DNA of 64,000 bases from an uncultured Candidatus Saccharibacteria bacterium (GCA_964429815.1 CAYSCM010000001.1:32001-96000); one strand, 5' to 3'. Numbered from the stretch's first letter, positions 44,555 to 64,000 are shown. Translations and numbers: made by a program. Notes: generated by a model not told the origin, from the sequence alone.

Positions 44555-44619
44555 GGCACACCTCGTCGTCGCTACCTTCAGTAGACCAGATATCCGATTT
44601 CACGCAATTGCGTTACGCA

Positions 44620-48282: not shown

Positions 48283-48310
48283 TTCCCGATACTACTTTAT
48301 TTTACTGAGG

Positions 48311-48392
48311 TGGGCGAGGGGAGAGTTGAACTCCCAATCCTTGCGGAATACGCTTCTGAGGCGTACGTGTATACCAATTCCACCACTCGCCC
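48311..48392 (-). tRNA. tRNA-Leu (anticodon CAG), class II with long variable arm
   Basis: Hand-folded. Acceptor GGGCGAG/CTCGCCC. Anticodon stem TACGC/GCGTA with loop CTCAGAA. Variable arm TCC-GCAA-GGA. T arm GGGAG-TTCAACT-CTCCC. No encoded CCA. Confidence 0.9.
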
Positions 48393-48544
48393 GTCTGTTC
48401 CATCCTACTCAAATATGAAAACGGGTCTAGCCGACATCAGACCGCGTGGGTCTCATTTAAAGGCGCCATCAATCCGATTTAAGCCTTCGACACACTGTTC
48501 TGTCAGCCGACTGGCGAGGGGCGGAAAAGCTGTACCGTCCTGTG

Positions 48545-48616
48545 TGCGAGTGGAAGGAATCGAACCTTCGACCTCTGTCTTATCAGGACAGCGTTCTACC
48601 ACTGAACTACACTCGC
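48545..48616 (-). tRNA. tRNA-Ile (anticodon GAU)
   Basis: Hand-folded. Acceptor GCGAGTG/CACTCGC. D arm GTTC/GAAC. Anticodon stem CTGTC/GACAG with loop CTGATAA. T arm GAAGG-TTCGATT-CCTTC. No encoded CCA. Confidence 0.9.
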
Positions 48617-48923
48617 AATGAGGTGGATACTAGCAAGAGAGCGCCTCCCTATCAACAGCTCCCCCTTCATGCGGGGTGCGTTTGGTCGGTACAATGATGG
48701 TGGTTCCAGTAGAAAGGAGAGAACCTTTGTGCGGTTGGTCACGACGTACACTCAAACGGGATCGCGGTCGTAGCCGAGAAATTCGGTCAAAGCCCATCCA
48801 GGAGGAGCTTTCCCTGCTCACCCCGAATGTCTCACGTGTCCTTCCCGAAGCCACAGTCGCTCCACCGGCGAGTCGCTCCGCGCGGCTCCCCTCACAGCAG
48901 CGACTCGCTGAGCTCTATGCCGC

Positions 48924-48973
48924 AAGGAGGTGATCCAGTCGCGTAAGAGCCCTACCAAGGCGCTTACGACTAC
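48924..48973 (-). rRNA. orphan 16S rRNA 3'-terminal segment (AGTCGTAA, hairpin, CTGGATCACCTCCTT)
   Basis: Minus-strand sequence GTAGTCGTAAGCGCCTTGGTAGGGCTCTTACGCGACTGGATCACCTCCTT. 15-nt identity to the universal 16S end, followed by the ITS and tRNA-Ile. Confidence 0.7.
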
Positions 48974-49028
48974 CGTTTTCGAACGTTCTTTCTTTCAAGC
49001 GCGCCGCGTTAGCGGCGCGCTTTCTATT

Positions 49029-49057
49029 CAAAAAAAGACCCGCTCTCAGAGCGGGTC
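49029..49057 (-). terminator. rho-independent terminator of the small-membrane-protein operon
   Basis: GACCCGCT ctgag AGCGGGTC followed by TTTTTTT on the minus strand. A second 11-bp GC hairpin lies at 48997-49022. Confidence 0.7.
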
Positions 49058-49069
49058 AGGTACGGGGGG

Positions 49070-49477
49070 TTATGCATCGTCGCGGTGACATAGCCGCAGG
49101 AGCGCACTAACGATGAGGACAGCTCCGAGGACGACCGGGGTGAACGCGGCGTTGAGTTCCCTATGGATGCCTAACCGGAGACCAATGAAGGTGACGACGA
49201 GGCCACCGAAGAACAGGATCGCGCTTTTCTCCACGTACGGGCTCCAGATTCGACAGAGGATGCCGCGCCATCCTCCCGTCATGAGAGCGGAAGCTACCAC
49301 CCCCAAGCTGTAGGAGGGAAAAGAATCCGTTTCCCGAACGAGGGCGTGGACGAAAAGCATGAGCCCGAGGAGAAAGACAAACGTGCCGAGTCCGATGATA
49401 AGCCGAGCCACGATGGACTCGCGAAGAACGCGAGGACGACTCCAATCGTGAAAAAGCTTGGTGGAGCGTTGAGACAT
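49070..49477 (-). CDS. small integral membrane protein (hypothetical), about 135 aa
   Basis: Starts at MSQRSTKL with SD AGAAGGAGGG 7 nt upstream. Three to four TM-length hydrophobic segments. Confidence 0.55.
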   Translation of the reverse strand: MSQRSTKLFHDWSRPRVLRESIVARLIIGLGTFVFLLGLMLFVHALVRETDSFPSYSLGVVASALMTGGWRGILCRIWSPYVEKSAILFFGGLVVTFIGLRLGIHRELNAAFTPVVLGAVLIVSALLRLCHRDDA

Positions 49478-49561
49478 GGATGGACCCTCCTTCTTTCGTC
49501 GTGATACCACTCTTCCTGAGCCGCCGCAACCTGTGGAAAACCGTTACGCAAGAAGGCCGCC

Positions 49562-49771
49562 CTACGGGCGGCCTTGCGGCTTTTTCTCGGCGCGACAGAT
49601 AAAGACGCACAGTATCATAAGCGCGATCGCGATGATGATAAAGAGCGTCCCCGCCGGCAGCGCATGAACAGGTTTTCCGCGTTGGATGATGCCGCCGATG
49701 AGCGCGGCAAAGCCGGCACCGGCAAGAACGAGCGCGAAGAAAGCCGTTGTGAGATTCGCTGCCTTTTTCAT
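49562..49771 (-). CDS. small membrane protein (hypothetical), 69 aa
   Basis: MKKAANLTTAFFALVLAGAGFAALIGG... with two TM-length segments. ATGA overlap with the upstream mini-ORF. Confidence 0.5.
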   Translation of the reverse strand: MKKAANLTTAFFALVLAGAGFAALIGGIIQRGKPVHALPAGTLFIIIAIALMILCVFICRAEKKPQGRP

Positions 49772-49893
49772 GGGAGCCTCACGAGCGGTCCGTGGAAGTA
49801 GAGAAACACGTCGAGCGCCAAACTGAAAAAGAACAGGCTTAGCAGGATACGTTTCTTCCCGCTTGGGCCCGAGAACGCCTTGATGGGATGCAT
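49768..49893 (-). CDS. mini-ORF, 41 aa hydrophobic peptide (hypothetical)
   Basis: Own translation: MHPIKAFSGPSGKKRILLSLFFFSLALDVFLYFHGPLVRLP. SD GGGAGGG lies 6 nt upstream. Below the ORF-track cutoff. Confidence 0.4.
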   Translation of the reverse strand: MHPIKAFSGPSGKKRILLSLFFFSLALDVFLYFHGPLVRLP

Positions 49894-49996
49894 GCTAGCC
49901 CTCCCTGGTACCTTGGCACATCCTAGCTAAAGAGGCATGCCGGCGCAATCTAAGAAGAGCGCCGCCGGTGGTGCCGGCGGCGTCGTGTCCCCACGA

Positions 49997-50251
49997 TCAA
50001 GGGAAGGTTCGGTCGATGAACGAGCCGAAGTAGCCGACGCCGAAGCCGAGTCCGAGGTACTGGAGCGGTCGGAGCGGTGCCTCGAGCATGTTGACGGCAG
50101 CGTAGGCGCCGAGCATCCAGGCTATACCTACCGTGAGCGCCCCGGCGGCCACGCCGGTCGCAACGTCACGGTACCAAGAGGCCTGAGCGTCCCACATGTG
50201 GTCGAGGCGCTCGAGTCCAGTGCGATAGTTCCGTAGGGTTCCGTCGGGCAT
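49997..50251 (-). CDS. small membrane protein (hypothetical), 84 aa
   Basis: SD AAGGAGGTT at 50255-50263. Hydrophobic core VATGVAAGALTVGIAWMLGAYAAV and a second segment LGLGFGVGYFGSF. Confidence 0.55.
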   Translation of the reverse strand: MPDGTLRNYRTGLERLDHMWDAQASWYRDVATGVAAGALTVGIAWMLGAYAAVNMLEAPLRPLQYLGLGFGVGYFGSFIDRTFP

Positions 50252-50322
50252 AGGAACCTCCTTTCCTTTCCCGTCCCTGTTCTACCGAAGTTTTGCGCTC
50301 TACACAATGGCTTCCTCCCCAT

Positions 50323-50357
50323 GCGCAAAAAAGCCCCTTATAAGGGGCTTTTTTGCG
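50323..50357. terminator. strong bidirectional hairpin with A/T runs immediately after the 16S trailer stem
   Basis: CGCAAAAAAGCCCC ttataa GGGGCTTTTTTGCG. Confidence 0.6.
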
Positions 50358-50359
50358 TT

Positions 50360-50388
50360 GGTACCAGAGTCTCTTTTGTTCCGTTCAA
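50360..50388 (-). promoter_or_regulatory. 3' arm of the pre-16S processing stem (RNase III-type)
   Basis: Complementary to 51987-52015: 8 bp, a 2x2 internal loop, then 19 bp. Confidence 0.7.
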
Positions 50389-50516
50389 TATACCAGTACG
50401 CATTTCTGGAAAGCGAGCAGACTTTAAAGACATACTGCTATGGTCTACTTCCGTACTCGATCGAGATACAGAATATCGACCGGATAAGTCTTACCTTCCG
50501 AAGAAGGAGACAGTTC

Positions 50517-51981
<1,465 letters not shown>

Positions 51982-51986
51982 ATTCG

Positions 51987-52015
51987 TTGAACGGAACAAA
52001 AGAGAGGCTGGTACC
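51987..52015 (-). promoter_or_regulatory. 5' arm of the pre-16S processing stem
   Basis: GGTACCAGCCTCTCTTTTGTTCCGTTCAA on the minus strand, pairing with 50360-50388. Preceded in the leader by the SD-like AGAAGGAGGT. Confidence 0.7.
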
Positions 52016-52230
52016 TCCTTCTTGATTCCTTTTACCCGTCCGAGCCGCAAAGCGGTTAGGATTAGGGTTTTTTGATCAGACTACACCGCCCTGGTTGGCG
52101 GCTAATCTAGTTGAACAGATTTTGTCTGCTCGCACATAACGTTCTTTGATTATCAATGATCACTACCTCATTGGCCGTTCGCCTCAAGCGGATTAGGCCG
52201 AAACAAAAACCTGCCCAAGGCAGTGCAGAC

Positions 52231-52258
52231 AGTATACGCAGAATTTGATGGGTGTCAA
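52231..52258 (-). promoter_or_regulatory. candidate 16S promoter
   Basis: Minus-strand TTGACA (52258-52253), 16-nt spacer, TATACT (52236-52231). About 250 nt upstream of the 16S 5' end. Confidence 0.5.
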
Positions 52259-52386
52259 ATGAAGGTCGCTCGCACACATCTTTTTGGAAACACGCATAAA
52301 ATAGGGCTTATTTTTGCTCCGCTCGCGCCGTCGCTCTGTGCGAGGTTTCCAAAAAGAGAATGCTCGCTCAAACAGGAAATGTAAAA

Positions 52387-52989
52387 TCAGATTGCGCCAC
52401 TCTGTGGAGGTTTTTTATTGAGATGTTGCCCAAAGAACGCCAGAGCTGTGATCGTTGTGTTGGCAAAAATCAAATAAATCGGATAAATCAGGTTAGCAAT
52501 ATCGAATTTTGTAGTCGAGACGGCAGCTAGAATTGCAGCGACGGCAATCATTGCCCACCCGAGAACGTTTTCTGAATAGGGCTCTCGATATGTCTTGGCT
52601 ATTGTCGGAATAGTCGAAATCAGGTCAGCCAGTACCGCTAGAATGAGCGCTACGAGAGGTTGTTTTGTAATTTGCCACAAACCTATAGCGATTATTGCTA
52701 GAGCAAAACAAGTATAATCAAGTGCCCCGTATTTTCTGTACCCATAACCAGACAAAGCAACAACAAGAATAAGCGCAGTGTTAAAAGTTGTTGTTATCAA
52801 GATTATGATGGACCACGATGCGCCGGCACTGAACTGAGCGGCTATGGCAATAATTTGTAGCGTGGTCCAAAGAACAAATGAAATTATATTTGGCCGAGTC
52901 GTACCCTTTATCATGCTTCTGACATAGGGGAAAACAGAGGCAATCTGGATTATTCCAGCAATAATTCCAACTACCGCATGCCAATCCAT
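52387..52989 (-). CDS. polytopic integral membrane protein (hypothetical; faint PQ-loop-like flavour)
   Basis: 200 aa from MDWHAVVGIIAGIIQIASVF, hydrophobic throughout. The track's N-terminal extension overlaps secF and is rejected. Confidence 0.5.
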   Translation of the reverse strand: MDWHAVVGIIAGIIQIASVFPYVRSMIKGTTRPNIISFVLWTTLQIIAIAAQFSAGASWSIIILITTTFNTALILVVALSGYGYRKYGALDYTCFALAIIAIGLWQITKQPLVALILAVLADLISTIPTIAKTYREPYSENVLGWAMIAVAAILAAVSTTKFDIANLIYPIYLIFANTTITALAFFGQHLNKKPPQSGAI

Positions 52990-52990
52990 C

Positions 52991-53893
52991 TTATTTCTTC
53001 TGCCAGCGCTCGATGGTGACGAGAAGTGGCGAGCCGAGGAAAATTGAGGAGTAGGTACCAGCGGCAATACCAATGAGAAGGGCAAGGGCGAAATTTTTGG
53101 TCGCCTCCGCGCCGAAAAAGTAAAGCGCGAGGAGCGAGAGGAGCACGGAGAGCGAGGTGTTGATCGAGCGATTAAAGGTCTGCGCAATACTCTTCCCAAC
53201 CGTAGTCCCAAACTCTTCCCGAATTCCCTGCTGGTGATTCACGCGGAGATTTTCACGCACGCGGTCGAAGACGACGATGGTATCGTGGACCGAAAAACCG
53301 AGCACCACGAGAAGCGCAGTGACAAAGAGCGTATCCACCTCAAACCCGGCATAGTGTCCGAGTATCGCAAATACCCCCGTTGGAATGATGACGTTATGGA
53401 TAAGCCCCACAATGGCGACCAATCCATACTTCCACGATGAAACAGGCTGCGACACCTTGCGAAACGCGAACGCGATGAAGAGGAGGATGGCCACGATGAC
53501 GAGCGCGACCGCGATCGTCGACTTGGTGCGAAGTTCCGAGCCGATCGTGGGGCCGATAGAGTTGTGCTGCTCACTCGTGATCTTCGCCGTCCCCCCGAGA
53601 GAAAGGGCGTTGAGAACTGCCACACGCTCTGGCTCTTGGAGATCTCGCGAACGAAGGATGTAACCATCGACTCCTGTGGGGCGCAGCGAGTAGGTTCCGA
53701 GCGTGAGAGTATTTAATTTACCCTCAGCCGCGGTTTTATCGGGCACTTGTCCCGCGTAGTGGACCTCTGTGAGAGCCCCGCCGGTAAAATCAATGCCGAG
53801 CTGAAGTCCAAAGAAAACAATCGCAAGGAGAGAGAGCCCCACCAGGACGGCGGAGAGGGCGTAGAAGAGTTTTCGATAAGTGATGACGAACAT
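52991..53893 (-). CDS. secF: protein translocase subunit SecF
   Basis: LGIDFTGGALTEV and the C-terminal RND-like TM bundle. Confidence 0.85.
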   Translation of the reverse strand: MFVITYRKLFYALSAVLVGLSLLAIVFFGLQLGIDFTGGALTEVHYAGQVPDKTAAEGKLNTLTLGTYSLRPTGVDGYILRSRDLQEPERVAVLNALSLGGTAKITSEQHNSIGPTIGSELRTKSTIAVALVIVAILLFIAFAFRKVSQPVSSWKYGLVAIVGLIHNVIIPTGVFAILGHYAGFEVDTLFVTALLVVLGFSVHDTIVVFDRVRENLRVNHQQGIREEFGTTVGKSIAQTFNRSINTSLSVLLSLLALYFFGAEATKNFALALLIGIAAGTYSSIFLGSPLLVTIERWQKK

Positions 53894-53895
53894 AG

Positions 53896-55281
53896 CTAGA
53901 ATTTGAACCCGTTACCAAAGAGTGCTCGCACTGCGCCCTTGTTTTCCCGGTGAAGAAGGCCGAGCGCATAAAGGAAGGTACGGCTTATAGAGACCGCGGT
54001 AAACATCGAGACGAGGACCCCGACCCCGAAGACAAGCGCAAAACCTTTAATAACCGCTGTGCCGCCAAGCCAGTAGAGGATAAAGGCGGTAATGATGGAA
54101 GAAATATTTGAGTCGCGGATTGAAGGCCACGCACGCGCAAAGCCTTCACGGATGGCTTCACCGAGCTTGTGTCCACGATTGAGCTCCTCTTTCATACGCT
54201 CGAATATGAGAATGTTCGCGTCAACCGCCATACCGACAGAGAGAATGAATCCTGCGATGCCGGCCGCAGTGAGCGTCACCGGGATGATCTTAAAGAGCGC
54301 GAGCATCATGACGACGTACATTCCGAGCGCCAGAATAGAGATGAGGCCGGGGAGGCGGTACCACAGGAGCATGAAGAGGGCGACGGCAAGGAAGCCGAGT
54401 TCGCCCGCATAGACACTCTTAGCTGCTGCCGCTTCTCCGAGCGAGGCACCGATCGTTTGAGTCCCGATAAGGGAAATGGGTACAGGGAGCGCGCCGAAAT
54501 TGAGGCTCTGCACAAGATCGCGCGCCTCGGTCGGCGTAAAGTTCCCGGAAATCGTCGCTTTACCACCAGTGATGGCCTCGCGGATGACTGGGGTCGATAT
54601 CGGTACGCCGTCGAGGAAAATGCCCAGTACGCCGCCTACATGCTCGCGCGTAATCTTTTCAAAAAGCGCCGAACCTTCCGCATTGAATTCGATCGACACG
54701 ATCGGTTGATTAATGTTCGCGCCACCCTGCCCTGTCCCGAAATTGAGCGTTGCGCGGGAGAAGAGGCGCCCGGTGAGGCCGGTGTCCGTGAAGGCCGAGT
54801 TGACGTCGAAAGTTTTGGCCTCTGAGGAGCCCGGCTCCGGTATCTTCGCGTCCGGCTTCATGAGCTTGAACTCAAGGAGAGGCGTCTTGCCGATGGCGAA
54901 AATCGCGGCGTTTACGTCCGTGACGCCAGGAAGCTCGACGATGAGGCGGTTCTCGGAGACGCCGGAGAGCGCGCTTGCGCGCTCCACCTGCACGAGAGGC
55001 TCCGAGACACCGAAAGCATTTACACGGCTCTCAATGACGGTGCGCAGCACTTCCATCGATGGTCCAATGTCGCCGGAAGCAACCTTTTTGGTGTCGGCTT
55101 TGTAGACGAGATGCGACCCGCCCGAGAGGTCGAGGCCGAGCTTAAAGGCGAAGCGCCCCGGGGAAAGCTGGGAGTGATAGACGAAGTAGCCGACCGCAAT
55201 CCCTGCGATGAGTATTAAAATGGCACTGACGCGCTGCCATACCATGGGGGTGAGCTTAGCAGAAAACCCTACCGTATGCAC
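53896..55281 (-). CDS. secD: protein translocase subunit SecD
   Basis: LGLDLSGGSHLVYKAD and the C-terminal TM bundle. The start may instead be at 55245. Confidence 0.85.
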   Translation of the reverse strand: MHTVGFSAKLTPMVWQRVSAILILIAGIAVGYFVYHSQLSPGRFAFKLGLDLSGGSHLVYKADTKKVASGDIGPSMEVLRTVIESRVNAFGVSEPLVQVERASALSGVSENRLIVELPGVTDVNAAIFAIGKTPLLEFKLMKPDAKIPEPGSSEAKTFDVNSAFTDTGLTGRLFSRATLNFGTGQGGANINQPIVSIEFNAEGSALFEKITREHVGGVLGIFLDGVPISTPVIREAITGGKATISGNFTPTEARDLVQSLNFGALPVPISLIGTQTIGASLGEAAAAKSVYAGELGFLAVALFMLLWYRLPGLISILALGMYVVMMLALFKIIPVTLTAAGIAGFILSVGMAVDANILIFERMKEELNRGHKLGEAIREGFARAWPSIRDSNISSIITAFILYWLGGTAVIKGFALVFGVGVLVSMFTAVSISRTFLYALGLLHRENKGAVRALFGNGFKF

Positions 55282-55286
55282 TACTG

Positions 55287-56231
55287 CTACAGGAGCTCCT
55301 GGGTTTGTGTGAGACCTTCGATAAGCGTATGTCGAGGCACGTATCCGAGAATCTTTTTTGCCTTAGATATATCGGCAAAGCTGTGTGGGATATCTCCAGG
55401 GCGAGAGGGCGCAAAATGAGGCTCGATAGAGGTTCCAAGCACGGTGTTGATGGTCGCCACAAGTTCGCGAAGGTTCGTCCGCTCCAGCCCCCCCACATTG
55501 AAAACCTCGCCCGCGATACCCTCTTTCTCTGCCGCCAAGATATTTGCAGCCACGGCGTCGGAGACGTAGGTGAACGAGCGGGAAGCTGACCCATCGCCAT
55601 AAATAGTCGGCCGTTCCCCGGCCTTCATAAGTTTAATGAATTTGGGAATTACCGCGGAATACTCTGAATTCGGATCCTGCCGCGGCCCATAGATATTAAA
55701 ATAGCGTAGGGAGACAGTTTCGAGCCCGAAAAGCGAATAAAATTGTTTTGCGTACACCTCCCCGAGATATTTCTGCGCAGCATAGGGAGAAAGAGGATTG
55801 GGAGGCAAATCTTCGACCTGCGGTAGCACGGGCGTGTCGCCATAGTAGGAACTTGATGCGGCATACACCACTCGCTGGACGCCCGTGTCGCGGGCCGCGA
55901 GAAGTACCTGGAGCGTTCCCGTCGCATTCGCCTCATGCGAGGTAAGCGGGTCCCGTACGCTCTTGGGAACGGACGGTACCGCTGCCTGGTGGAACACAAC
56001 ATTAGCGCCCGAGAAAACGCGGGCGAGAGCGCCGAGGTCGAGAATGCTCGCCGGTATGAATTCGATACGGTCGGCAACACCTTTAAGATTTTCTGCACTA
56101 CCTGTTGATACGTCATCGACCACTCTGACGGTATACCCGCGCAACAGAAGCTCTTCAACGAGATGCGAACCAATGAATCCCGCACCTCCTGTTACCACAG
56201 CTCTTTTCATGGTAGGTGTAACGACCTTCAT
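55287..56231 (-). CDS. NAD-dependent epimerase/dehydratase (UDP-hexose 4-epimerase-like)
   Basis: VVTGGAGFIGSHLVEELL and YAAQK motifs. Confidence 0.8.
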   Translation of the reverse strand: MKVVTPTMKRAVVTGGAGFIGSHLVEELLLRGYTVRVVDDVSTGSAENLKGVADRIEFIPASILDLGALARVFSGANVVFHQAAVPSVPKSVRDPLTSHEANATGTLQVLLAARDTGVQRVVYAASSSYYGDTPVLPQVEDLPPNPLSPYAAQKYLGEVYAKQFYSLFGLETVSLRYFNIYGPRQDPNSEYSAVIPKFIKLMKAGERPTIYGDGSASRSFTYVSDAVAANILAAEKEGIAGEVFNVGGLERTNLRELVATINTVLGTSIEPHFAPSRPGDIPHSFADISKAKKILGYVPRHTLIEGLTQTQELL

Positions 56232-56236
56232 GCGGC

Positions 56237-57586
56237 CTACGTTCCACTTCTCGAGAGAAGTGCGCGTACGGTCTTAAGGGCAATGTGGAAATCAAGCACG
56301 AGTGAGCGGTGTTTTACGTAGTACAAGTCGTAGGAGAGTTTCCGCGCTGTTTTTTCAACGTCAACGACACCCCGGGGGGCATCGTAGTCATTGATCTGTG
56401 CCCAGCCGGAGAGACCTGGCTTCACCAGGTGTCGGGCGTTGTAGAGAGGTAATTCTTTTTCGTAGGCCCTAACCAACGTGGGGATCTCCGGACGAGGCCC
56501 GATGAGAGAGAGCTCACCCCGTAAGACATTCAAGAGCTGGGGAAACTCGTCGATACGTGATTTGCGCAGTACTTTTCCCGCCTCCGTGATACGGTTTTTC
56601 TTGTGAAGCTCAGGATCGCCGTGATCATCAAAGAGCCAAGAGCGGAATTTCATGAGCTCAAAAGAGCGGTTATTCTGTCCGACCCTCTCCTGAGATATAA
56701 AAAGCGGCCCCGAGGAAGTTACTCTCAGTGCGATCGCGCCTCCAAAGCAAAATGGGAGCGCGATGACACCCGCAATGAGTGCCACCACGATGTCCATCGC
56801 ACGCTTGAGCGCGTCATACGCACTATGCCGATCGCGAATTTCTTCAGTGAGAAGCTTGGTTTCGTCGATGAGTGTAAGCGGCACACGCTGAAAGAGGTCC
56901 TCAAAGAGCGTCGCAGTATCGATAAAACGCGTACCCTCGAACACTAACGCGGAAAAATCGCGCGCGTACGGGGAAAGTTTCTCGTGGTGCGCATCGAATA
57001 CAATGACCCGAGGCCTTTCTTGGCGCGCACGCGCGAGAATTTTTTTTGCATCGAAGGCGCTCGCGGAGATTTTGTCTTTAAGGATGATGCCGTGTCGTGG
57101 ATTATGTGTGAGCTCATGCGCTATCGCATCTATCTCCTTTCCCTCCCCAATGAGATACGCTGTCACAGGTACCCGAGGTCGAAGCTTCGGGACAATGAGA
57201 AGTCGCCAGAAAAGAATACTCCCCACAGATACACCGAGGTAGATGAGAAGTGTCGTCTTCGGAGCAATACCAAACCAAGGAGCAAAGAAAAAGAACAAGG
57301 CGGCAATGATGACATTCGCGACTTGGGCCTGGACAATCGCTAGCGGCATGCGCTCAACCACCGCGAGAGTGCGACGCTCGTAGAGCTCAAGAATGAAAAA
57401 AACCCCTATCCAAACGAGAAAGAGGAACGAAAACGGCACAAGATGTTGCAGGAAAACGGCTCCGGTCGGAAACGAAAAGGTCCTCAAATAGAGGGATAGC
57501 CATAGGGACGCGACAAAACAAAAAACGTCTCCGAGGAGGAGCACGAAGGTGCCGGTGTGCCGAAGCCGCATGGTCACACCATACAA
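56237..57586 (-). CDS. polyprenyl-phosphate sugar-phosphate transferase (WbaP/exopolysaccharide priming transferase family)
   Basis: N-terminal TM helices and the C-terminal bacterial sugar transferase domain (KFRSW...DEFPQLLNVLRGELSLIGPRP). Confidence 0.8.
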   Translation of the reverse strand: MYGVTMRLRHTGTFVLLLGDVFCFVASLWLSLYLRTFSFPTGAVFLQHLVPFSFLFLVWIGVFFILELYERRTLAVVERMPLAIVQAQVANVIIAALFFFFAPWFGIAPKTTLLIYLGVSVGSILFWRLLIVPKLRPRVPVTAYLIGEGKEIDAIAHELTHNPRHGIILKDKISASAFDAKKILARARQERPRVIVFDAHHEKLSPYARDFSALVFEGTRFIDTATLFEDLFQRVPLTLIDETKLLTEEIRDRHSAYDALKRAMDIVVALIAGVIALPFCFGGAIALRVTSSGPLFISQERVGQNNRSFELMKFRSWLFDDHGDPELHKKNRITEAGKVLRKSRIDEFPQLLNVLRGELSLIGPRPEIPTLVRAYEKELPLYNARHLVKPGLSGWAQINDYDAPRGVVDVEKTARKLSYDLYYVKHRSLVLDFHIALKTVRALLSRSGT

Positions 57587-57649
57587 CGATTTAGCTCTTA
57601 CACAAGTTACCTATGTGGAGCGCTACCTCGTGGTAGCCTTTTATAAACT

Positions 57650-58762
57650 ATGAAGGTTCTCTATGTCATCACAAAAGGTAATTTTGGAGGCGCCCAGCGC
57701 TACGTGTTTGAGTTGGCGGTTGAAGCAAAACGTCGAGGGCATGATGTGACTGTCGTTTACGGGGAGCCCGGCGTATTGATCAAGAAGCTAGCAGGGGCCT
57801 ACATACGGACAATTTCCCTTTCTACTCTTCAGAGAAACATCAATCCCCTCAAAGAGATCGGGAGTTTCATTCGCCTTGTGTCCCTCATACATTCATTACA
57901 TCCTGATGTGGTCCATCTCAATAGCGCCAAAGCCGGAGGACTCGGCGCCCTCGCCGCTCGCGTGATGGCAGTACCACGAATTGTTTTCACTGTTCATGGC
58001 TGGCCCTTTAACGAAGAACGGCTATGGGTTGACAACATGGTCCGGGCTTTGTTGCAGTGGCTTACGGTGATGCTAACGCATGTAAGCATTGTCGTTGCAG
58101 AGAGCGACAAAAAGCAGGTCGCTCACTGGCCCTTTGTGCAGAAGAAAATAGTGTGCATTCATAATGGCGTTGGCACCATAGATTTTCTTGAAAGGAGCAC
58201 CTCGCGCGCAAACCTTTTATCTACGCACGTCGAGAAATTCTGGATCGGAGCACATACCGAAAACAAAAATAAGGGCATCGACTTTCTTTTGAAAGCCTAT
58301 GCGCGCGCCCGGGAAAAACTTTCTTCCGCGATCATCGTACTTTTCGGCACAGGGCCGGAAGAGTCCAATCTTAAACGCCTCACACGGGAGTTAGGGATCG
58401 AGGATAAGGTTTTTTTTCTTGGATTTTTAGATAATGCACGAGCGTACCTTAAAGCTTTCGATGTTTACACCATTCCCTCCCGTAAAGAAGGATTGCCGTA
58501 TTCACTCCTCGAGGCCGGCGCGGCGGGACTCCCGGTCGTTGCGAGCCGGGTGGGAGGCATCCCCGAAGCAGTAACCGACACGCAAAGTGGTTTTCTCACA
58601 GCCCCTGGCGATGTAGTACTTCTTTCAGCCAGGCTCGCAGAGCTCATAGAAAGCGAACCGCTGCGCGAAAAATTTGGACAGGCCTTGCGAGCGAAAGTTG
58701 AAAAAGAATTCTCTCTTTCTCACGTGTTTGAAAAAACATTTGCTCTCTACTCACACCCCTAG
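57650..58762 (+). CDS. GT4-family glycosyltransferase
   Basis: KEGLPYSLLEAGAAGLPVVASRVGG. Confidence 0.8.
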   Translation: MKVLYVITKGNFGGAQRYVFELAVEAKRRGHDVTVVYGEPGVLIKKLAGAYIRTISLSTLQRNINPLKEIGSFIRLVSLIHSLHPDVVHLNSAKAGGLGALAARVMAVPRIVFTVHGWPFNEERLWVDNMVRALLQWLTVMLTHVSIVVAESDKKQVAHWPFVQKKIVCIHNGVGTIDFLERSTSRANLLSTHVEKFWIGAHTENKNKGIDFLLKAYARAREKLSSAIIVLFGTGPEESNLKRLTRELGIEDKVFFLGFLDNARAYLKAFDVYTIPSRKEGLPYSLLEAGAAGLPVVASRVGGIPEAVTDTQSGFLTAPGDVVLLSARLAELIESEPLREKFGQALRAKVEKEFSLSHVFEKTFALYSHP

Positions 58763-59902
58763 AAACTCTTTCCCGATATCGTCGCGGTGGAAGGCCCTGC
58801 TGTAGGCTCGCTGTCCCATCAAAATGCCGAGCCCCATATACTCGGTGAGGAGGTGTGAGCCGCCGTAGCTCATGAAGGGAATGGTGATGCCGGTCACCGG
58901 CAAGAGCCCGATGTTGAAACCGATGTGAATGATGAGGTGACTCAAGAAGTACACCGCAAGGCCAGCTGCAAATAAGGTCTCAAAATTACTCTCCCCGTGC
59001 ATAGCGGTCGCGATGATACGCCACAAAATAATCCCGTAGAGGATAAAGAGCAGAAGAACGCCAACAAATCCCCACTCTTCGGCGAACGCTGCGAAGATAA
59101 AGTCCGTTTGATACTCAGGGAGAAACTGCAGCCGGCTCTGGGTTCCGTAACCAACCCCCTTCCCCACAAGCCGTCCCGAGCCGACCGCGATCGTGGACTG
59201 GTAGGCATTGTAGCCGGCGCCGCGAATGTCGGTGAGGGGGTGAATGAACGTGAGGACGCGCTGCTTCTGGTATGGCCGGAGTGCAAAGAGCCACATGCCC
59301 GCCGCTATCACGGCCGCGACCAGAAAGACCGTGAGAAGATGACGAAGCGATATCCCCGCAACGAGGACCATCCCGAGCCATATGGTGCCGATGATGATGG
59401 CCGAACCGAGATCAGGCTGGAGAAAGATGAGGACGAAAGGAACGAGCGTATACGCGCCAGAGAGGAGGATGTGCCGGATGTGTGCTATTTCCACATGCCG
59501 ACGCGAAAAATACTTGGCGAGGACTATGATGAGCACGAGCTTCATCGGGTCGGCGGGTTGCAGCGCGAATGAACCGAAGTTGAAGCGAGCCTGAGCGCCC
59601 TTAGCGATGGAGCCGAACACGAAAATGAGGAAGAGCAGCGCGATGGCCGCGACGTAGAGCGACGCGATAACGGAGGTGCGCCGCAGGAAGTGATAGTCGA
59701 AGAGTGCGAAAATGAAAAAGCTCGCAAGCGCGAGCGCTATCCAGACAAGCTGTTTGTTGAAGAAGTAATTCTCCGCCCCGAAGGAATTCATCGTAAAGAG
59801 GCCTGCCGCGAGGATGGGGAGCGTCGAGAGGAGGAGCACCCAGTCGATACTCTGCCGTATGTTCGTGAAAAAACGGCGTCCTCGGGCGATGGTAGCGGCC
59901 AT
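58751..59902 (-). CDS. rodA: FtsW/RodA/SpoVE-family peptidoglycan glycosyltransferase
   Basis: QSTIAVGSGRLVGKG...LPEYQTDFIFAAFAEEWGF. Start MAATIARG at 59902, just after the upstream stop. Confidence 0.8.
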   Translation of the reverse strand: MAATIARGRRFFTNIRQSIDWVLLLSTLPILAAGLFTMNSFGAENYFFNKQLVWIALALASFFIFALFDYHFLRRTSVIASLYVAAIALLFLIFVFGSIAKGAQARFNFGSFALQPADPMKLVLIIVLAKYFSRRHVEIAHIRHILLSGAYTLVPFVLIFLQPDLGSAIIIGTIWLGMVLVAGISLRHLLTVFLVAAVIAAGMWLFALRPYQKQRVLTFIHPLTDIRGAGYNAYQSTIAVGSGRLVGKGVGYGTQSRLQFLPEYQTDFIFAAFAEEWGFVGVLLLFILYGIILWRIIATAMHGESNFETLFAAGLAVYFLSHLIIHIGFNIGLLPVTGITIPFMSYGGSHLLTEYMGLGILMGQRAYSRAFHRDDIGKEFLGV

Positions 59903-59904
59903 GA

Positions 59905-60666
59905 TCAGAGAGGCCTGACCCGGACCTTCACATCGACCGTAGTCGAGGTCGCTGTAAACGGACGAGGCCACGTGAAGGTGAGCGTGTTACTCCCCTGCGC
60001 AGGGAGCTCTCTCACGACCGTGCGGGACGCCGCCATTGCATTGCCGTTTTCGTTGAAGATAACCGCGGTCGCCTCGATGCTTTGTATCGGCCGAAGTGAG
60101 GTGTTGCTGATGGTCACCGTGAGCTTGGGAGAGGCGCCCGCCTCGGAAAGTCCTCGCTCCCCTATCAAAATACTTTTAGCAGGATCGTCGGCTAGGGTGA
60201 AATTTTGTACGGGCGAAAATTCGAAGAAGGTGCGCGAGGGGGTTCGATTCCCCGTCGTTATGCCCGGTTCAACGATGACGTTAACCTGGCCTGGCGAGAG
60301 GAATGTGGTCCCCTTACGCTCCACGACGAGGATGTTTCCCTCATCGTAGAGCTTGAAATCGTAGGGAAAGGAGAGAACAGCACCGCTCTCATTGGGATTG
60401 TTGACGTAGGCGATCGCCGTCCACACCCCCGGCGTTACCTCGACGGAGCGTGCCCACATGACCGTGGCTGGGGATGTTTTGAAGGGGCAGATTTTCTTGC
60501 AAGCGCCACCGCAGTCAATTCCCTCTTCCCTGCCATCTTGTCTGCCGTCGGAGCAGGTCGGCGCCGTGGAGAGGAGTGAGTACGCGATACCCCCAAAAAG
60601 AAGCAGAAGAACGAGTAGTATGCCGCTTACGTAGAGGCCCTTGCGGCGATTAGCCCAGGCTGACAT
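59905..60666 (-). CDS. membrane-anchored extracytoplasmic protein (hypothetical)
   Basis: Start MSAWANRRKG at 60666, one N-terminal TM helix and a Cys-rich segment CSDGRQDGREEGIDCGGACKKIC. The track start at 60699 lies inside the terminator. Confidence 0.55.
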   Translation of the reverse strand: MSAWANRRKGLYVSGILLVLLLLFGGIAYSLLSTAPTCSDGRQDGREEGIDCGGACKKICPFKTSPATVMWARSVEVTPGVWTAIAYVNNPNESGAVLSFPYDFKLYDEGNILVVERKGTTFLSPGQVNVIVEPGITTGNRTPSRTFFEFSPVQNFTLADDPAKSILIGERGLSEAGASPKLTVTISNTSLRPIQSIEATAVIFNENGNAMAASRTVVRELPAQGSNTLTFTWPRPFTATSTTVDVKVRVRPL

Positions 60667-60684
60667 GGGAAGAATAGTAACACG

Positions 60685-60715
60685 AAAAAAACACCTCACT
60701 TTGAGGTGTTTTTTT
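60685..60715. terminator. terminator of the 23S-5S unit (bidirectional hairpin)
   Basis: AAAAAAACACCTCA ctt TGAGGTGTTTTTTT. Confidence 0.7.
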
Positions 60716-60730
60716 GACTTTTAAATCCCC

Positions 60731-60840
60731 TAACCTGGCGGCTACCTACTCTCCCCTTGCGAGTACCTAGCGGCGTAGCGGGCTGAAAGCGAGGGTTCGC
60801 AGCTTTCAGAGCCGCAGGCCTGTTCGAGGCCGAGGCGGGG
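60731..60840 (-). pseudogene. 5S rRNA-like element lacking the 5' ~25 nt and carrying an extra internal hairpin
   Basis: 37 nt identical to the 5S 3' end (60731-60767 equals 60914-60950). It then diverges but stays alignable (GCCCGCTACGCCGCTAGGTAC versus GCCCGCTAGCGCCGATGGTAC). Inserted hairpin CTGAAAGC...GCTTTCAG. Confidence 0.5.
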
Positions 60841-60875
60841 TCACGCATAAAATGCAGCAGCATTTTATGCGTGAC
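60840..60875. repeat. perfect 16-bp palindromic hairpin
   Basis: GTCACGCATAAAATGC agca GCATTTTATGCGTGAC. Confidence 0.85.
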
Positions 60876-60914
60876 TAACGGCATGTCCCGTCCAAAATGT
60901 TAGTTAGAAACTAT

Positions 60915-61022
60915 AACCTGGCGGCTACCTACTCTCCCCTTGCGAGTACCATCGGCGCTAGCGGGCTTAACGGCCGTGTTCGGAATGAGAACGGGTGTTT
61001 CCCCGCCGCCAAACCACCAGAT
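60915..61022 (-). rRNA. rrf: 5S rRNA
   Basis: Minus strand: CTGGTGGTTTGGCGGCGGGGAAACACCCGTTCTCATTCCGAACACGGCCGTTAAGCCCGCTAGCGCCGATGGTACTCGCAAGGGGAGAGTAGGTAGCCGCCAGGTT. Helix I closes with G-U pairs. Flanked by the 12-bp inverted repeat 60889-60900 / 61057-61068. Confidence 0.85.
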
Positions 61023-61073
61023 TATAAATTCCAACTATTTTCGATCTCTAAGTGTGACATTTTGGACGGATTC

Positions 61074-61119
61074 TCGGAATGAGAACGGGTGTTTCCCCGC
61101 CGCCAAACCACCAGATTAT
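61074..61119 (-). repeat. orphan duplicate of the 5S 5' half
   Basis: 46-nt perfect direct repeat of 60980-61025. Confidence 0.85.
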
Positions 61120-62388
61120 GAGATTCAAAAAGTCGGGTTCGGCAGCCGACTTCCTCGATAGGATGAGGAAGATCGGCTGCCGCCCGCGCAAGGACGTGAG
61201 CAGTTGAGCGGGGCGCTCCTCCCGAGCGGCCACCATTCCCATCGCAGTGCTAAAGCGCTTCTTAGAATGGTCGCGGAGGGCGACACCATTCCAGCTCCGC
61301 AAAGGGTCCGTGCACGCTTCTTTCCCACGTCCGAAAAGCGAAAACAAAGAACTTAACGTTTCGAAGCGTCCGAAATCCGGGTAGATTTCGGCCACCAGTA
61401 AAACGTCAAGCGGGTTAAAAAAGTAACGAAAATCATATTCAATCAATTGCGACATGCAGATTCCCTGACAGGAAACTCGACGTATTAGTACGCCTCGGCT
61501 CAATCCGTTGCCGGACTTCCACCTGGCGCCTATCAACGTAATAGTCTCTTACGGGTCTCAACGAGTCCTCATCTCAGAGTTGGCTTCTTGCTTAGATGCT
61601 TTCAGCAATTATCCATGCCGAACTTAGCTACGCAGCGTGCTTCTGGCGAAACAGCTGCCACACCAGAGGTTCGTCCATTCCGGTCCTCTCGTACTAGGAA
61701 CAGATCTCTTCAAGACTCAACGCCCATGGTAGATAGGAGACCAACCTGTCTCACGACGGTTTGAACCCAGCTCGCGTATCTTTTTAATTGGCGAACAGCC
61801 AAACCCTTGGGACCTTCTCCAGCCCCAGGATAAGATGAGCCGACATCGAGGTGCCGAACGGTACCGTCGCTATGGACGCTTGGGTACCACTAGCCTGTTA
61901 TCCCCAGAGTAGCTTTTGTCCGATAATCTTCCCCCGCATCTAATGCGTAAGGTCGGTTCACTTTGCTCCGCTTTCGCGCCTGCTCGGCATGTACGCCTTA
62001 CAGTCAAGCTCCCTTTTGCCAATACACTATCGGCACGGTTTCCATTCGCGCCTAGGGAACCTTAATAGACTCCTCCGTTACTCTTTAGGAGGATAGCGCC
62101 CCACTAAAACTGCCTGCCATGCAGTGTCCCTCATCGTTTTTGCCGACGAGGTTAGAGACTATATGTTGTCAGGATGGTATTTCACTGGCGAGTCCACACT
62201 CCCCGGAAGGAATGCTTCAACCTCTCCCATCTATGCTGCGCAGAAAAAACATAGCCCCACTACAAAGCTACAGTAAAGCTTCTGGGGTCTTTTCGTCTAA
62301 CCACGGGTAACCGGCATCTTCACCGGTATTGTATTTTCACCAGGCTGATCCTCGAGACAGTCCCCCAGTCGTTACACCATTCGTGCAC

Positions 62389-62428
<40 letters not shown>

Positions 62429-63158
62429 GATTATAGTTATCGCCGACATTCACCAGGGCTTGCATAGCCCAGCACTACACATAAATGCATAGCACCATCC
62501 ATGCTTGACCTTCTGGCATTGGTCAGGTGTCACCCCCTATACATCCTCTTACGAGTTCGCAGGGAGCTGTGTTTTTGGTAAACAGTCGCCAGGAGTACTT
62601 TCGCTGCGGCCCCGCCGACTTGCGTCGAAAGGGCAGGCCTTATTGCTAACGTACGGCCGCTTTTTTGCCGAGTTCCTTGAGGATCAATCACCTGTTCGCC
62701 TTGGTCTACTCGACCTGACCACCTGTGTCGGATTACGGTACGGTCTCGTGTTTGTTATGCTTAGAGATTTTTCTTGGAAGCGTGCTCCCATGCGTAAATC
62801 CTCCGTAGAGGATCTCCCCGTGATGCTCGGACTTGCGACTCCCGGATTTTCCTAGAAGTCATCCTCACACCCCAGACACCAATCCAATAAGATGCGCATA
62901 GTACAACCCTTCGTCCTCTCATCGCACAAACACAAGGTCATGGAATATTAACCATGCATCCATTAGGTACGGCTTTCGCCATCCCCTTAGGACCGACTAA
63001 CCCTTGGCTGATCTTCATCGCCAAGGAAACCTTGGTCTTTCGGCGTGGGGGAGTCTCACCCCCATTGTGGTTACTCGTGCCGGCATTCTCACTTCGCAAC
63101 GCTCCACGCTCAGTTACCCTCGCGCTTCATGGCGGATGCGAACGCTCTCCTACCGCGT

Positions 63159-63336
63159 TATGTGTTTCGTTGAGGAGCCGAGGATGGCTCCTCGGCTATT
63201 AGTCTTCTTCGTCGTTATAGATGAACGGTATAGGTCCAAACATTGACCAGACCGCGACCGCAATGACGTAGATTGCAAACCAGTCGTCTTCCAACATGGC
63301 TTCACCTCTTTTGTACTTTCCTCAACGAAACACACA
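63159..63336 (-). other. intervening sequence (IVS) replacing 23S helix 45
   Basis: The E. coli hairpin GCAGCGACGCTTATGCGTTGTTG is replaced by about 175 nt. The insert is closed by a 16+2 bp stem (63159-63176 / 63319-63336) between CCGAAACTGAGGG and GGTAGGAGAGCGTTC. Confidence 0.7.
63199..63297 (-). CDS. candidate 32-codon mini-ORF inside the 23S IVS
   Basis: Own translation: MLEDDWFAIYVIAVAVWSMFGPIPFIYNDEED. SD GAGGTG lies 5 nt upstream. Stop TAA is followed by the 9-bp hairpin 63176-63197. Confidence 0.3.
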   Translation of the reverse strand: MLEDDWFAIYVIAVAVWSMFGPIPFIYNDEED

Positions 63337-63417
63337 ACACCCTCAGTTTCGGTACAACGCTTAAGCCCCGATTATTTCCGGCGCAAGATCTCTCGATGAG
63401 TGAGCTGTTACGCTTTC

Positions 63418-63449
<32 letters not shown>

Positions 63450-64000
63450 TCATTGTCAGAGAAATTTCACCTCCTTAAGATGCACTGAGCGTTGATTTTG
63501 GGACCTTAACTTGAGATCTAGGCTCTTCCCTTTTTGACCACCGGAGCTTAGCCCCCGGAGTCTAACTGCGTGGTAGTGGAGAACGGTATTTGGAGTTTGA
63601 TAGGATTGACGAGCTTTCGCCCTATTCAATCCTTCCAGTGCTCTACCCCCGTTCTATAAACCACACGCCAGCCCAAAAGCTGTTTCGGAGAGAACCAGCT
63701 ATTACCAGGTTCGATAAGCTTTTCACTCCAACCCACAAGTCATCCGAATGCGTTGAACGACATACCGGTTCGGGCCTCCCCACTCCTTTCGGAGTGGTTC
63801 ACCCTGCTCATGGGTAGCTCACCTGGCTTCGGGTCGTATACGCGCTACTTAGTCGCGCTATTCACACTCGCTTTCGCTACGGCTTCGTCCGACAAAGGAC
63901 TTAGCCTCGCAACGCGCATACACTCGCCGGCTCATTCTTCAATAGGCACGCGGTCACCCGGAAGGATAGAAGCACCCAAGACTAGCCGATGGGTCGTTGC

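Follow-up and report, generated by a model that had tools for sequence, protein, structure and literature searches.

A 16S rRNA gene of the anti-Shine-Dalgarno-less kind, probably uninterrupted, and an orphan copy of the canonical 16S terminus in the spacer behind it

Does a 16S ribosomal RNA (rRNA) gene that lacks the canonical anti-Shine-Dalgarno (anti-SD) sequence at its own 3′ end, and that is followed about 1.6 kb downstream by a second copy of the canonical terminus, represent an interrupted gene, or does it end where it appears to end? The question is raised by a stretch of 64,000 nucleotides (nt) from an uncultured Candidatus Saccharibacteria bacterium (GCA_964429815.1 CAYSCM010000001.1:32001-96000; the window, in what follows). 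Along its minus strand lie the 23S and 5S rRNA genes, about 9 kb of protein genes, the 16S gene (rrs), 1.6 kb with four open reading frames (ORFs), the terminus copy CTGGATCACCTCCTT, a spacer, and the transfer RNA (tRNA) genes for tRNA-Ile and tRNA-Leu. A first-pass annotation of the window had offered three explanations, namely an intervening sequence at 48933-50528, an insertion or duplication that displaced the native tail, and a chimeric contig. Comparison with relatives leads to a different answer: the 16S gene is, with good confidence, intact and uninterrupted, and the distal tail would not be joined to it. On the sequence evidence the gene is of the known anti-SD-less kind, and the 1.6-kb block is best described as an intergenic spacer with lineage-specific small genes.

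The body of the gene is matched by the Rfam bacterial small-subunit (SSU) model (RF00177), which spans 51980-50519 on the minus strand with 1376.8 bits. The sequence and this alignment confirm the initial description of the 3′ end, with a canonical helix 45 (h45; CACGGGTAGC at 50555-50546, a GGAA loop at 50545-50542 and GCTGCTCGTG at 50541-50532), GGAT ending at 50529, and a tail without the canonical anti-SD. After GGAT the gene reads TAATTCCAATCGGAAC where canonical 16S has CACCTCCTT, and CCTCC is not found between 50528 and the stem arm at 50388. The SSU model sets GAUUAAUUCCAAU against GAUcACCUCCUUu, and the tail falls opposite cACCUCCUUu. The nearest species in GTDB reach 85-86.5% 16S identity by BLAST; these best matches are metagenome-assembled genomes (MAGs) of Paceibacterota/Parcubacteria, with which the h45 and 1400-region signatures are also held in common.

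Searched with a pattern that ignores the tail, in which CTCACCGCCCGTCAA is followed after 75-105 nt by GTAGCGGAAGCTGC, GTDB genomes (one per species) yield at least 119 species loci, nearly all of them Paceibacteria/Parcubacteria MAGs, and 115 of the 119 listed matches carry the window type of tail, TCGTGGA(A/T)..TTC(C)AA..TTG(G)AA followed by a variable hairpin and GTCGAT. Canonical GGATCACCTCC stands right behind h45 in only three of the listed matches (L009, L054 and L109; relatives and contigs are cited by L numbers), whose tails read GGATCACCTCCTTTCT(A)GGAG. Intermediate forms occur in L101 (GGATCACTTCCAAATGGAA) and L085 (CTCCTTTTAAGGAG) beside the canonical form of L109 (CACCTCCTTTCTGGAG), and the tails can be arranged as a series from canonical CACCUCCUUUCUGGAG (L109) through CUCCUUUUAAGGAG (L085), GGAUCACUUCCAAAUGGAA (L101) and GGAUUAAUUCCAAUCGGAA (window) to GGAUUAAUUCAAUUGAAAA at many loci. 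These intermediates and the Rfam alignment argue that the proximal tail is positionally homologous to the anti-SD. As the non-canonical tail is common to relatives down to about 77% 16S identity, it must be old and was not caused by the 1.6-kb block. The comparison thus identifies the proximal tail as the native one, in which ancestral GAUCACCUCC appears to have mutated in place, clade-wide, to GAUUAAUUCC. The mutated segment would now serve as the 5′ arm of a small conserved hairpin (hairpin 1), whose arms vary in a compensatory manner between UUCA/UGAA and UUCC/GGAA, with a statistic that is modest, as AT-rich tails form short hairpins by chance; the canonical L109 tail is itself foldable as CUCC/GGAG. 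CUCCUU at 50507-50502 was considered as an alternative anti-SD and rejected, as it falls within hairpin 2, which is variable, and relatives do not share it. Loss of the motif has precedent in this lineage: it is detected in 48% of Parcubacteria and is absent from a subgroup overlapping the group that lacks uL1 (Tsurumaki et al. 2022, RNA 28:1041; PMC9297842).

The sequences that flank the gene also suggest a closed unit. Of the inverted repeats in this region, the longest joins the leader at 51987-52015 with the trailer at 50360-50388 over 29 nt with 93% complementarity, and a palindromic terminator starts 3 nt past the trailer arm, about 1.4 kb upstream of the distal tail. A leader/trailer complement is found in 41 of the 43 relatives with enough flanking sequence, where it measures 17-31 nt and lies 115-260 nt behind h45. 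The core of the stem is kept in sequence (TTTTGTTCCGTTC or UUUUGUUCCGUUC / GAACGGAACAAAA) and its flanks vary between species yet stay complementary; the core TGAACGGAACAAAA lies at equal offset in L022, L095 and L063. The window-specific flanks of the arms (GGTACCAG... and ...CTGGTACC) are complementary as well, which ties the trailer to the leader, and BLAST alignments to relatives run on into the trailer at 50389-50513. Across about 43 Paceibacteria loci and the window, the trailer from h45 to the stem is unusually long (115-260 nt) and carries a conserved GUCGAU motif. Paceibacteria are mostly without rplA and era, and bacteria of the candidate phyla radiation (CPR) keep RNase III, with rnc conserved (PMC12641178). 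On this evidence rrs would be a complete and self-contained unit of promoter, leader, 16S, about 170 nt of trailer and terminator, in which the pre-16S would be closed by a long leader/trailer duplex of the RNase III substrate type, presumably processed by that enzyme, and transcription would end at the perfect terminator 3 nt past the duplex. Mature 16S would then be expected to end in hairpin 1 or shortly behind it (roughly 50514-50500), or else at the putative RNase III stem. The position of an intrinsic terminator directly behind the stem implies that tRNA-Ile is not co-transcribed with the 16S; a promoter of its own is predicted for it. Since the start of the supposed insert is conserved 16S trailer, an intron beginning at 50528 is not indicated.

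On the leader side, an SD-like AAGGAGGT at 52017-52024 abuts the 5′ side of the leader arm, and is not followed by a start codon at SD spacing; in L007 the corresponding position reads AGGAGGAAG, and L242 has no such motif. As a partner for the distal tail, this leader AAGGAGGU (about 52024-52017) was rejected, as the pairing comprises 8 bp only and the motif is missing in the L242 leader.

The upstream regions of the window genes are consistent with ribosomes that do not use an anti-SD. SD-like cores precede 9% of 58 putative starts, which were crudely called, versus 11% of internal control codons, and -10-like hexamers of the TAnnnT type occur 4-12 nt before 22% of starts versus 7% of controls (9% versus 1% at a stricter threshold). 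The latter signal points to widespread leaderless mRNAs among the window genes, and the two results together suggest that initiation is largely leaderless or SD-independent, as expected without an anti-SD. Judged by these statistics, ribosomes of this type would initiate mainly on leaderless or otherwise SD-independent mRNAs. The first-pass annotation had drawn the opposite lesson from four SD sites that were said to match the canonical tail. GAGGTG at 44559-44564, before a 71-amino-acid (aa) gene, stands as described, and the site at 2554-2559 reads GGAGGA, not GGAGGT; 50255-50263 belongs to the first spacer ORF, and 63303-63308 lies inside the 23S gene, before a 32-aa insertion ORF. With SD-like motifs at background, the four sites do not argue for a canonical tail.

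The insertion that holds the last of these sites comprises about 165 nt of the 23S gene (63163-63327, minus strand) and occupies the loop of the helix at Rfam large-subunit (LSU) positions 1209-1226, the classical helix-45 site of intervening sequences; it is closed by cguugagg/ccucaacg. Its hydrophobic ORF (63297-63199, MLEDDWFAIYVIAVAVWSMFGPIPFIYNDEED) has AAGAGGTGAAGCC upstream and a codon score of +0.38/codon.

The distal copy of the terminus is real. The window contains CTGGATCACCTCCTT exactly once, at minus-strand positions 48938-48924, and with up to two mismatches there are two matches versus 0.08 expected from shuffles, which upholds the view that this 15-nt match exceeds chance. An imperfect hairpin (AGTCG TAAG ... 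CTTA CG CGACT, 48971-48937) stands before it, and the module as a whole, AGTCGTAA, hairpin and CTGGATCACCTCCTT, is collinear with the 16S 3′ minor domain, with no gene body. The spacer of about 300 nt noted behind it measures 307 nt and leads to tRNA-Ile(GAT) at 48616-48544. The module is present in three of about 116 Paceibacteria loci, namely the window, L022 and L095, the last of which was independently assembled by the Joint Genome Institute (JGI) as L242, a contig that adds the full 16S and its leader. In L022 and L095 the module lies about 390 nt past h45 and behind the rrs stem, with about 130 nt of ORF-free sequence before it, and carries ACAAGGTAGCCGTAG (identical to canonical 16S 1499-1513) and CTGGATCACCTCC as two collinear blocks 70 nt apart; tail and tRNA-Ile are 309, 325 and 397 nt apart in the window, L022 and L095, respectively. 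The window and L095/L242 share an exact 18-mer, CGCGACTGGATCACCTCC (48943-48926), with a G->A change relative to the usual GCGGCUGG; the two loci have 84.7% identity in 16S, and their spacers are otherwise unalignable except for the stem core. Conservation between the L022 and L095 spacers is highest in the two 16S-like blocks, and the hairpins of these two loci differ by seven compensatory changes, with none broken, on either strand. The invariant 18-mer, the conserved blocks and the compensatory changes indicate constraint, and they speak against the decaying, unconserved relic that had been named beforehand as an outcome speaking against an interrupted gene.

Comparison of these loci identifies the distal module as a descendant of the canonical 16S 3′ end, either by partial duplication or as a remnant, and it is probably functional, given a core unchanged in at least two deeply diverged lineages. 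Its tail is predicted to be unpaired between the hairpins in single- and two-sequence folds, and the opposite strand folds equally well or better (two-sequence fold -69.5 versus -60 kcal/mol for the sense strand, with 49 pairs and seven compensatory changes on both). A choice of strand by G·U pairs and alignment folds was tried and given up, both strands having the same 49 pairs and seven changes. The leading guess is that the module is a structured RNA that exposes CACCUCC, or, from the other strand, complements it, for pairing of the SD/anti-SD type in a non-ribosomal role, with the adjacent SD-led genes as one possible target. A consensus scan, which is weak evidence, detects no sense-strand promoter-like site near 48975-49030 and no U-tract terminator behind the module. 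A metagenome scan for the distal 18-mer CSCGACTGGATCACCTCC returns no new instance, its 119 matches all being chance occurrences in coding DNA of high-GC bacteria. Among 55 spacers, the anti-SD core ACCTCC occurs 10 times versus 7.3 expected, which is not significant, and ACCTCCT six times versus 2.0 expected (P = 0.003); the core in L029 is an extension of its processing stem, and that in L007 is the SD of an opposite-strand ORF.

The last 1.4 kb before the tRNA genes would be a conserved, length-variable spacer between rrs and tRNA-Ile, into which this lineage has apparently acquired four membrane-protein genes without detectable homologues (ORFans), with terminators of their own. The order from 16S to tRNA-Ile(GAT) holds in 55 loci, often with tRNA-Leu(CAG) next, and the spacers range from 0.2 to 2.3 kb. 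No homologue of ORF D is found among 5.8 billion and 1.84 billion proteins, and scans of all spacer ORFs against Pfam, PHROGs and NCBIfam give only low-complexity or sub-threshold matches. The spacer ORFs score +0.21 to +0.35/codon, where true genes average 0.25 and spurious ORFs -0.15. The block has 59.2% GC versus 53.5% for the window, within the top 1% of equal-size windows, and three more terminator-like hairpins lie inside it, behind ORFs. Same-strand ORFs that combine an SD with a membrane segment are present in 13 of the 55 spacers (the window and 12 relatives, L019, L028, L031, L038, L044, L059, L061, L094, L096, L103, L110 and L111), with 14 such ORFs versus 0 on the opposite strand. 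The cluster behind rrs is therefore a recurrent one in the clade and not peculiar to this contig, and an rrs without an anti-SD seems repeatedly to be followed by small SD-led genes for membrane or secreted proteins. The features of the locus are collected in Table 1.

Table 1. Features of the 16S locus and its surroundings, in minus-strand order
Feature	Position	Strand	Basis or remark
23S rRNA gene	64000-61464	minus	truncated by window end
5S rRNA gene	61021-60916	minus	
Promoter-like site 5′ of rrs, TTGACA-16-TATACT, 11/12	52231-52258	minus	consensus scan; putative function
5′ leader arm of putative rrs processing stem, GGTACCAGCCTCTCTTTTGTTCCGTTCAA	51987-52015	minus	inverted repeat; also in Logan contigs L243 and L244
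16S body through helix 45 and GGAU, Paceibacteria type, no anti-SD	50529-51980	minus	Rfam RF00177, 1376.8 bits
Degenerate former anti-SD tail, UAAUUCC for CACCUCC; hairpin 1 UUCC AAUC GGAA at 50525-50514	50514-50528	minus	Rfam alignment and relatives
3′ trailer of conserved architecture: hairpin 2 (50511-50488, UUCG loop, variable), GTCGAT (50480-50475), more structure	50389-50513	minus	
3′ trailer arm of putative rrs processing stem, TTGAACGGAACAAAAGAGACTCTGGTACC	50360-50388	minus	inverted repeat and relatives
Predicted bidirectional intrinsic terminator, perfect 17+17 palindrome	50324-50357	minus	Logan k-mer contig L001 starts inside
ORF A, 84 aa, membrane-like, SD AAGGAGGT	49997-50251	minus	codon log-likelihood +0.35/codon; no family match
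ORF B, 41 aa, hydrophobic, SD GGGAGGG	49768-49893	minus	
ORF C, 69 aa, two hydrophobic segments, GTGAGGC upstream, overlaps ORF B end	49562-49771	minus	sub-threshold weak DUF202 match
ORF D, 135 aa, multi-pass membrane-like, SD AAGGAGGG, ORFan	49070-49477	minus	
Predicted intrinsic terminator behind ORF D, GACCCGCTCTGAGAGCGGGTC then T7	49037-49057	minus	
GC hairpin GCGCGCCGC TAAC GCGGCGCGC; U-rich tail on plus strand only	48999-49020	unassigned	
Orphan module: pseudo-helix-45 hairpin closed AGUCG/CGACU, then GGAUCACCUCCUU	48924-48971	minus	
ITS-like spacer (ITS, internal transcribed spacer), orphan tail to tRNA-Ile, 307 nt; 10-bp hairpin	48617-48923	minus	
Promoter-like site for tRNA-Ile, TTGATA-17-TAGTAT	48655-48627	minus	
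tRNA-Ile(GAT)	48544-48616	minus	first downstream tRNA in 55 relatives
tRNA-Leu(CAG)	48309-48392	minus	order kept in relatives

Several explanations would make the 1.6-kb block foreign to the locus. If 48933-50528 were an intervening sequence removed from the pre-16S, distal CACCUCCUU would be joined to or held beside h45 and the mature 16S would be canonical, ending in GAUCACCUCCUU; TGGAT at both borders, the frequency of insertions in CPR rRNA genes (PMC9297842), the perfect preservation of the canonical tail and the strong SDs before the rRNA-associated ORFs would all suit such an intron. It is nevertheless strongly disfavoured by the comparative data and considered highly improbable, since the supposed insert starts with trailer sequence that 115 of the 119 listed relatives have in common and that leads into the stem arm and the perfect terminator, behind which the ORF block would lie outside the rRNA unit, and the TGGAT taken for an insert border is the conserved end of h45. 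Synteny speaks the same way, in that relatives show the clade-wide tail and no 3′ exon before tRNA-Ile: several have 213-293 nt from h45 to tRNA-Ile with no CCTCC, and CACCTCCT occurs downstream (within 7.8 kb) in only six listed loci besides the window, the three canonical-tail species aside, at two spacer sites (+192 and +241) and four distant ones, 2-5 kb away. A family search of 48600-50750, at a threshold as loose as E <= 10, gives no group I, group II or other RNA match, and no TGGAT splice point gives a 5′ exon ending in U together with an intron ending in G, as the group I rule requires. Between the two ends of the 1.6-kb block no pairing is seen, and the sole long duplex is that of leader and trailer; RNAduplex finds the 16S trailer and the distal region no more complementary than shuffled sequence (z ~0) in the window, L022 and L095, and nothing is seen that would hold a free 13-nt single-stranded tail on the 30S subunit. 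A recent insertion, in which a 1.6-kb element entered a hitherto canonical 16S behind GGAU, predicts a close relative with contiguous h45-GGATCACCTCCTT and the same ITS. The ORFan nature of the ORFs, the elevated GC of the block and ORF SDs that are atypical for this genome fit it, but the age of the tail type does not, nor does the start of the ORF block only past trailer, stem and terminator. L022 and L095, moreover, have the module with ORF-free sequence in between, codon usage of the ORFs is native, and flanking repeats, an integrase or a transposase are not found, all of which leaves this account scarcely credible. What survives of the displaced-tail proposal is the non-canonical ribosomal end and the duplication, both of which fit; the displacement itself does not, the tail having mutated in place across the clade. 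A chimera, finally, would have brought in the segment from terminator to tRNA-Ile from another, SD-using organism, joined through the palindrome and the conserved tRNA-Ile. Contigs of the Logan k=31 assemblies do break exactly at the palindrome (50355) and in tRNA-Ile (48583), and the segment is richer in GC and SD-bearing; a perfect 34-nt palindrome alone, however, breaks k=31 graphs, and the contigs from two runs (L001, 50355->48583; L243, 60760->51922; L244, 55829->51945) match with zero mismatches, and their ends fall within the palindrome, tRNA-Ile or conserved 16S, as is inevitable with such graphs. The segment is assembled in three Logan contigs, of which the one examined, L001, is free of mismatches. 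With ORF codon usage equal to that of this genome, complementary stem arms on the two sides, the order 16S, tRNA-Ile, tRNA-Leu conserved in the clade, and the same succession of rrs terminator, orphan tail and tRNA-Ile in L022 and in L095, which was assembled twice, a chimera is very unlikely.

Two further readings concern what the module does. In one, a small plus-strand unit (SD, small ORF, structured RNA, terminator) would end with the module, whose likeness to 16S would be a relic. An Arg/Lys-rich ORF of 84-85 aa runs through the orphan tail (..AARREVIQS..) in L022 (spacer 362-617) and in L095/L242 (346-600 in L242), where JGI calls it as a gene; the two are gapless at 72% nt identity, with codon-position differences of 20/18/33, and strong terminators with U-tracts lie right past the module. 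The window has a plus-strand ORF (48676/48727-48933) that stops at a TGA inside AAGGAGGTGATCC, with U-tailed hairpins next, but its codon usage is that of non-coding sequence (-0.05 to -0.08/codon) and its product is 16% identical to the L022 protein, which is not significant. L063 has CACCTCC at a similar offset in a different frame, the best-conserved 5′ block of L022/L095 lies outside the ORF, and 18 of 18 identical bases, synonymous sites included, are unlike a weakly conserved small protein, so that this reading is rather unlikely. An antisense small-protein family was rejected, as the L022/L095 ORF is an orphan with no homologues elsewhere and codon usage in the window ORF is of the non-coding type. 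Further small basic ORFs on the opposite strand are seen in L007, L014, L024, L029 and L112. The other reading holds that pseudo-helix 45 and GAUCACCUCC form a free-standing module under selection, an RNA of its own that pairs with SD-like leaders, either as a riboregulator, for example of the adjacent membrane-protein genes, or as a ribosomal tail supplied in trans; in a bolder variant, an RNA from the opposite strand, complementary to the universal 16S 3′ end that this symbiont is without, would target host ribosomes. The conservation of the CACCUCC-containing 18-mer across 84.7% 16S identity, the predicted single-stranded tail between two conserved hairpins, the perfect 8-nt complement of the tail at ORF A (AAGGAGGU), the SD-like core at every spacer ORF and a weak SD-position signal in anti-SD-less relatives are in its favour. 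The module sits directly behind terminators with no sense-strand promoter found, however, and occurs in three of about 116 species, whereas SD-led spacer ORFs are present in many species without it; folding is equally good or better on the opposite strand, no pairing with the 16S trailer is detected, and to our knowledge no mechanism tethers such an RNA to the 30S subunit. The regulatory or trans-acting module is accordingly held to be improbable, and its opposite-strand variant shares that low standing.

Several points weigh against the preferred reading of an uninterrupted 16S followed by an orphan terminus of probable function. SD-like cores stand at all four spacer ORFs and at the ORF of the 23S insertion (AAGGAGGT, GGGAGGG, GTGAGGC, AAGGAGGG and AAGAGGTG), and pooled anti-SD-less relatives show a weak peak of SD 5-mers at the SD position (3.8% versus 0.8-1.7%; unrelated control contigs, under the same noisy ORF calling, give 7.4% versus 2.0-2.6%); neither is expected if the cell has no anti-SD. 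With 64 kb in view of a contig that measures at least 502 kb, a second rrs with a canonical tail elsewhere is possible, and such a gene, or any further orphan tail, would carry GATCACCTCC. The junction between trailer and spacer crosses a palindrome that is spanned by no independent contig, and a public gene index has no junction-spanning or flanking ORFs on record. The module is known from three of about 116 species, two of them congeners, and may be a relic kept by an unrelated constraint. Besides, terminator use, the position at which mature 16S ends and any transcript of the distal module are all deduced from DNA.

Some further features of the rRNA genes deserve mention. They are unlinked and in unusual order on one strand (50324-64000), with 23S and 5S, about 9 kb of protein genes that include an FtsW-like gene, glycosyltransferases and SecD/SecF, and then the 16S with its own promoter-like site and terminator. 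In the 530-loop region of the 16S (about 51515-51550, by eye), the universal CAGCCGCGG is replaced by GTGCCAGCAGAAGCGG, with CTTC as the upstream partner; the counterpart in L242 lies at about 1060-1090. The 505-507/524-526 pseudoknot would go from GGC/GCC to UUC/GAA, and to CUC/GAG in L242, a change that looks compensatory, and the variant mismatches the 515F primer site. The 16S of L091 measures about 3.5 kb from its 5′ end to h45 and hence contains about 2 kb of insertions, which fits reports of introns and insertions in CPR rRNA genes.

For annotators and 16S pipelines, the comparison implies that Paceibacteria 16S genes should be expected to end in h45-GGA(U/A) followed by a hairpin, that a downstream CCUCC is not to be sought or stitched on, and that an apparent 16S interruption of this kind has a documented explanation. 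The interest that is left appears to lie in a constrained-looking orphan module and in the SD-like leaders of rRNA-associated ORFs, within a genome that otherwise ignores SDs. An invariant orphan 16S terminus survives in lineages whose ribosomes dropped it, beside genes with SD-like leaders, and if expressed it would bear on the use of SD-like sequences in organisms without an anti-SD.

Bacteroidetes ribosomes reportedly retain the anti-SD in 16S and mask it by bS21, bS18 and bS6; the two cases are alike in that SDs are mostly ignored and a few genes have strong SDs, and differ in that the anti-SD here is mutated away. In E. coli, an RNase III leader/trailer stem encloses the 16S in the 17S precursor, with the trailer arm within about 33 nt. 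The window and its relatives resemble such bacterial rrn stems in the long duplex around 16S with covarying flanks, and differ from the E. coli stem in a trailer arm 115-260 nt past h45, a conserved core sequence and a terminator directly behind. The distal module is like orphan or partial rRNA fragments in that it matches the 16S 3′ end collinearly and has no gene body, and unlike pseudo-rRNA remnants in a core that is 100% conserved at order level or deeper and in hairpins that are kept by compensation. C-rich small RNAs (sRNAs) such as RsaE/RoxS and CcsR target SD sequences, and the module would resemble them in a C-rich motif, predicted to be single-stranded between hairpins, that could pair with GGAGG leaders; unlike them, it has no promoter and terminator delimiting an sRNA and its motif is the literal 16S terminus, and the Rfam search of the distal region gives no match to C-rich sRNA families, with RF02791 at chance level only. 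Insertions and introns are described in CPR rRNA genes (Brown et al. 2015, as cited in PMC9297842), and as far as that citation goes the present case is similar in lineage and in having extra DNA in or near rRNA genes, the 165-nt insertion of the window 23S included; it is dissimilar in that the 1.6 kb lie outside the rrs unit, interrupt no rRNA and contain neither an intron core nor a homing endonuclease. A further likeness is to the anti-SD-less 16S of Parcubacteria (PMC9297842), which agrees in lineage (Parcubacteria/Paceibacteria) and in the lack of CCUCCU at the 16S 3′ end, and in which SD helices are thought not to form. Where that account gives only the frequency of motif detection, the 119-species comparison adds to the published absence an anti-SD that appears to have been turned in place into a conserved hairpin, a long trailer (115-260 nt) closed by a conserved leader/trailer stem, upstream signals of the leaderless type and, in a few lineages, an orphan canonical tail downstream.

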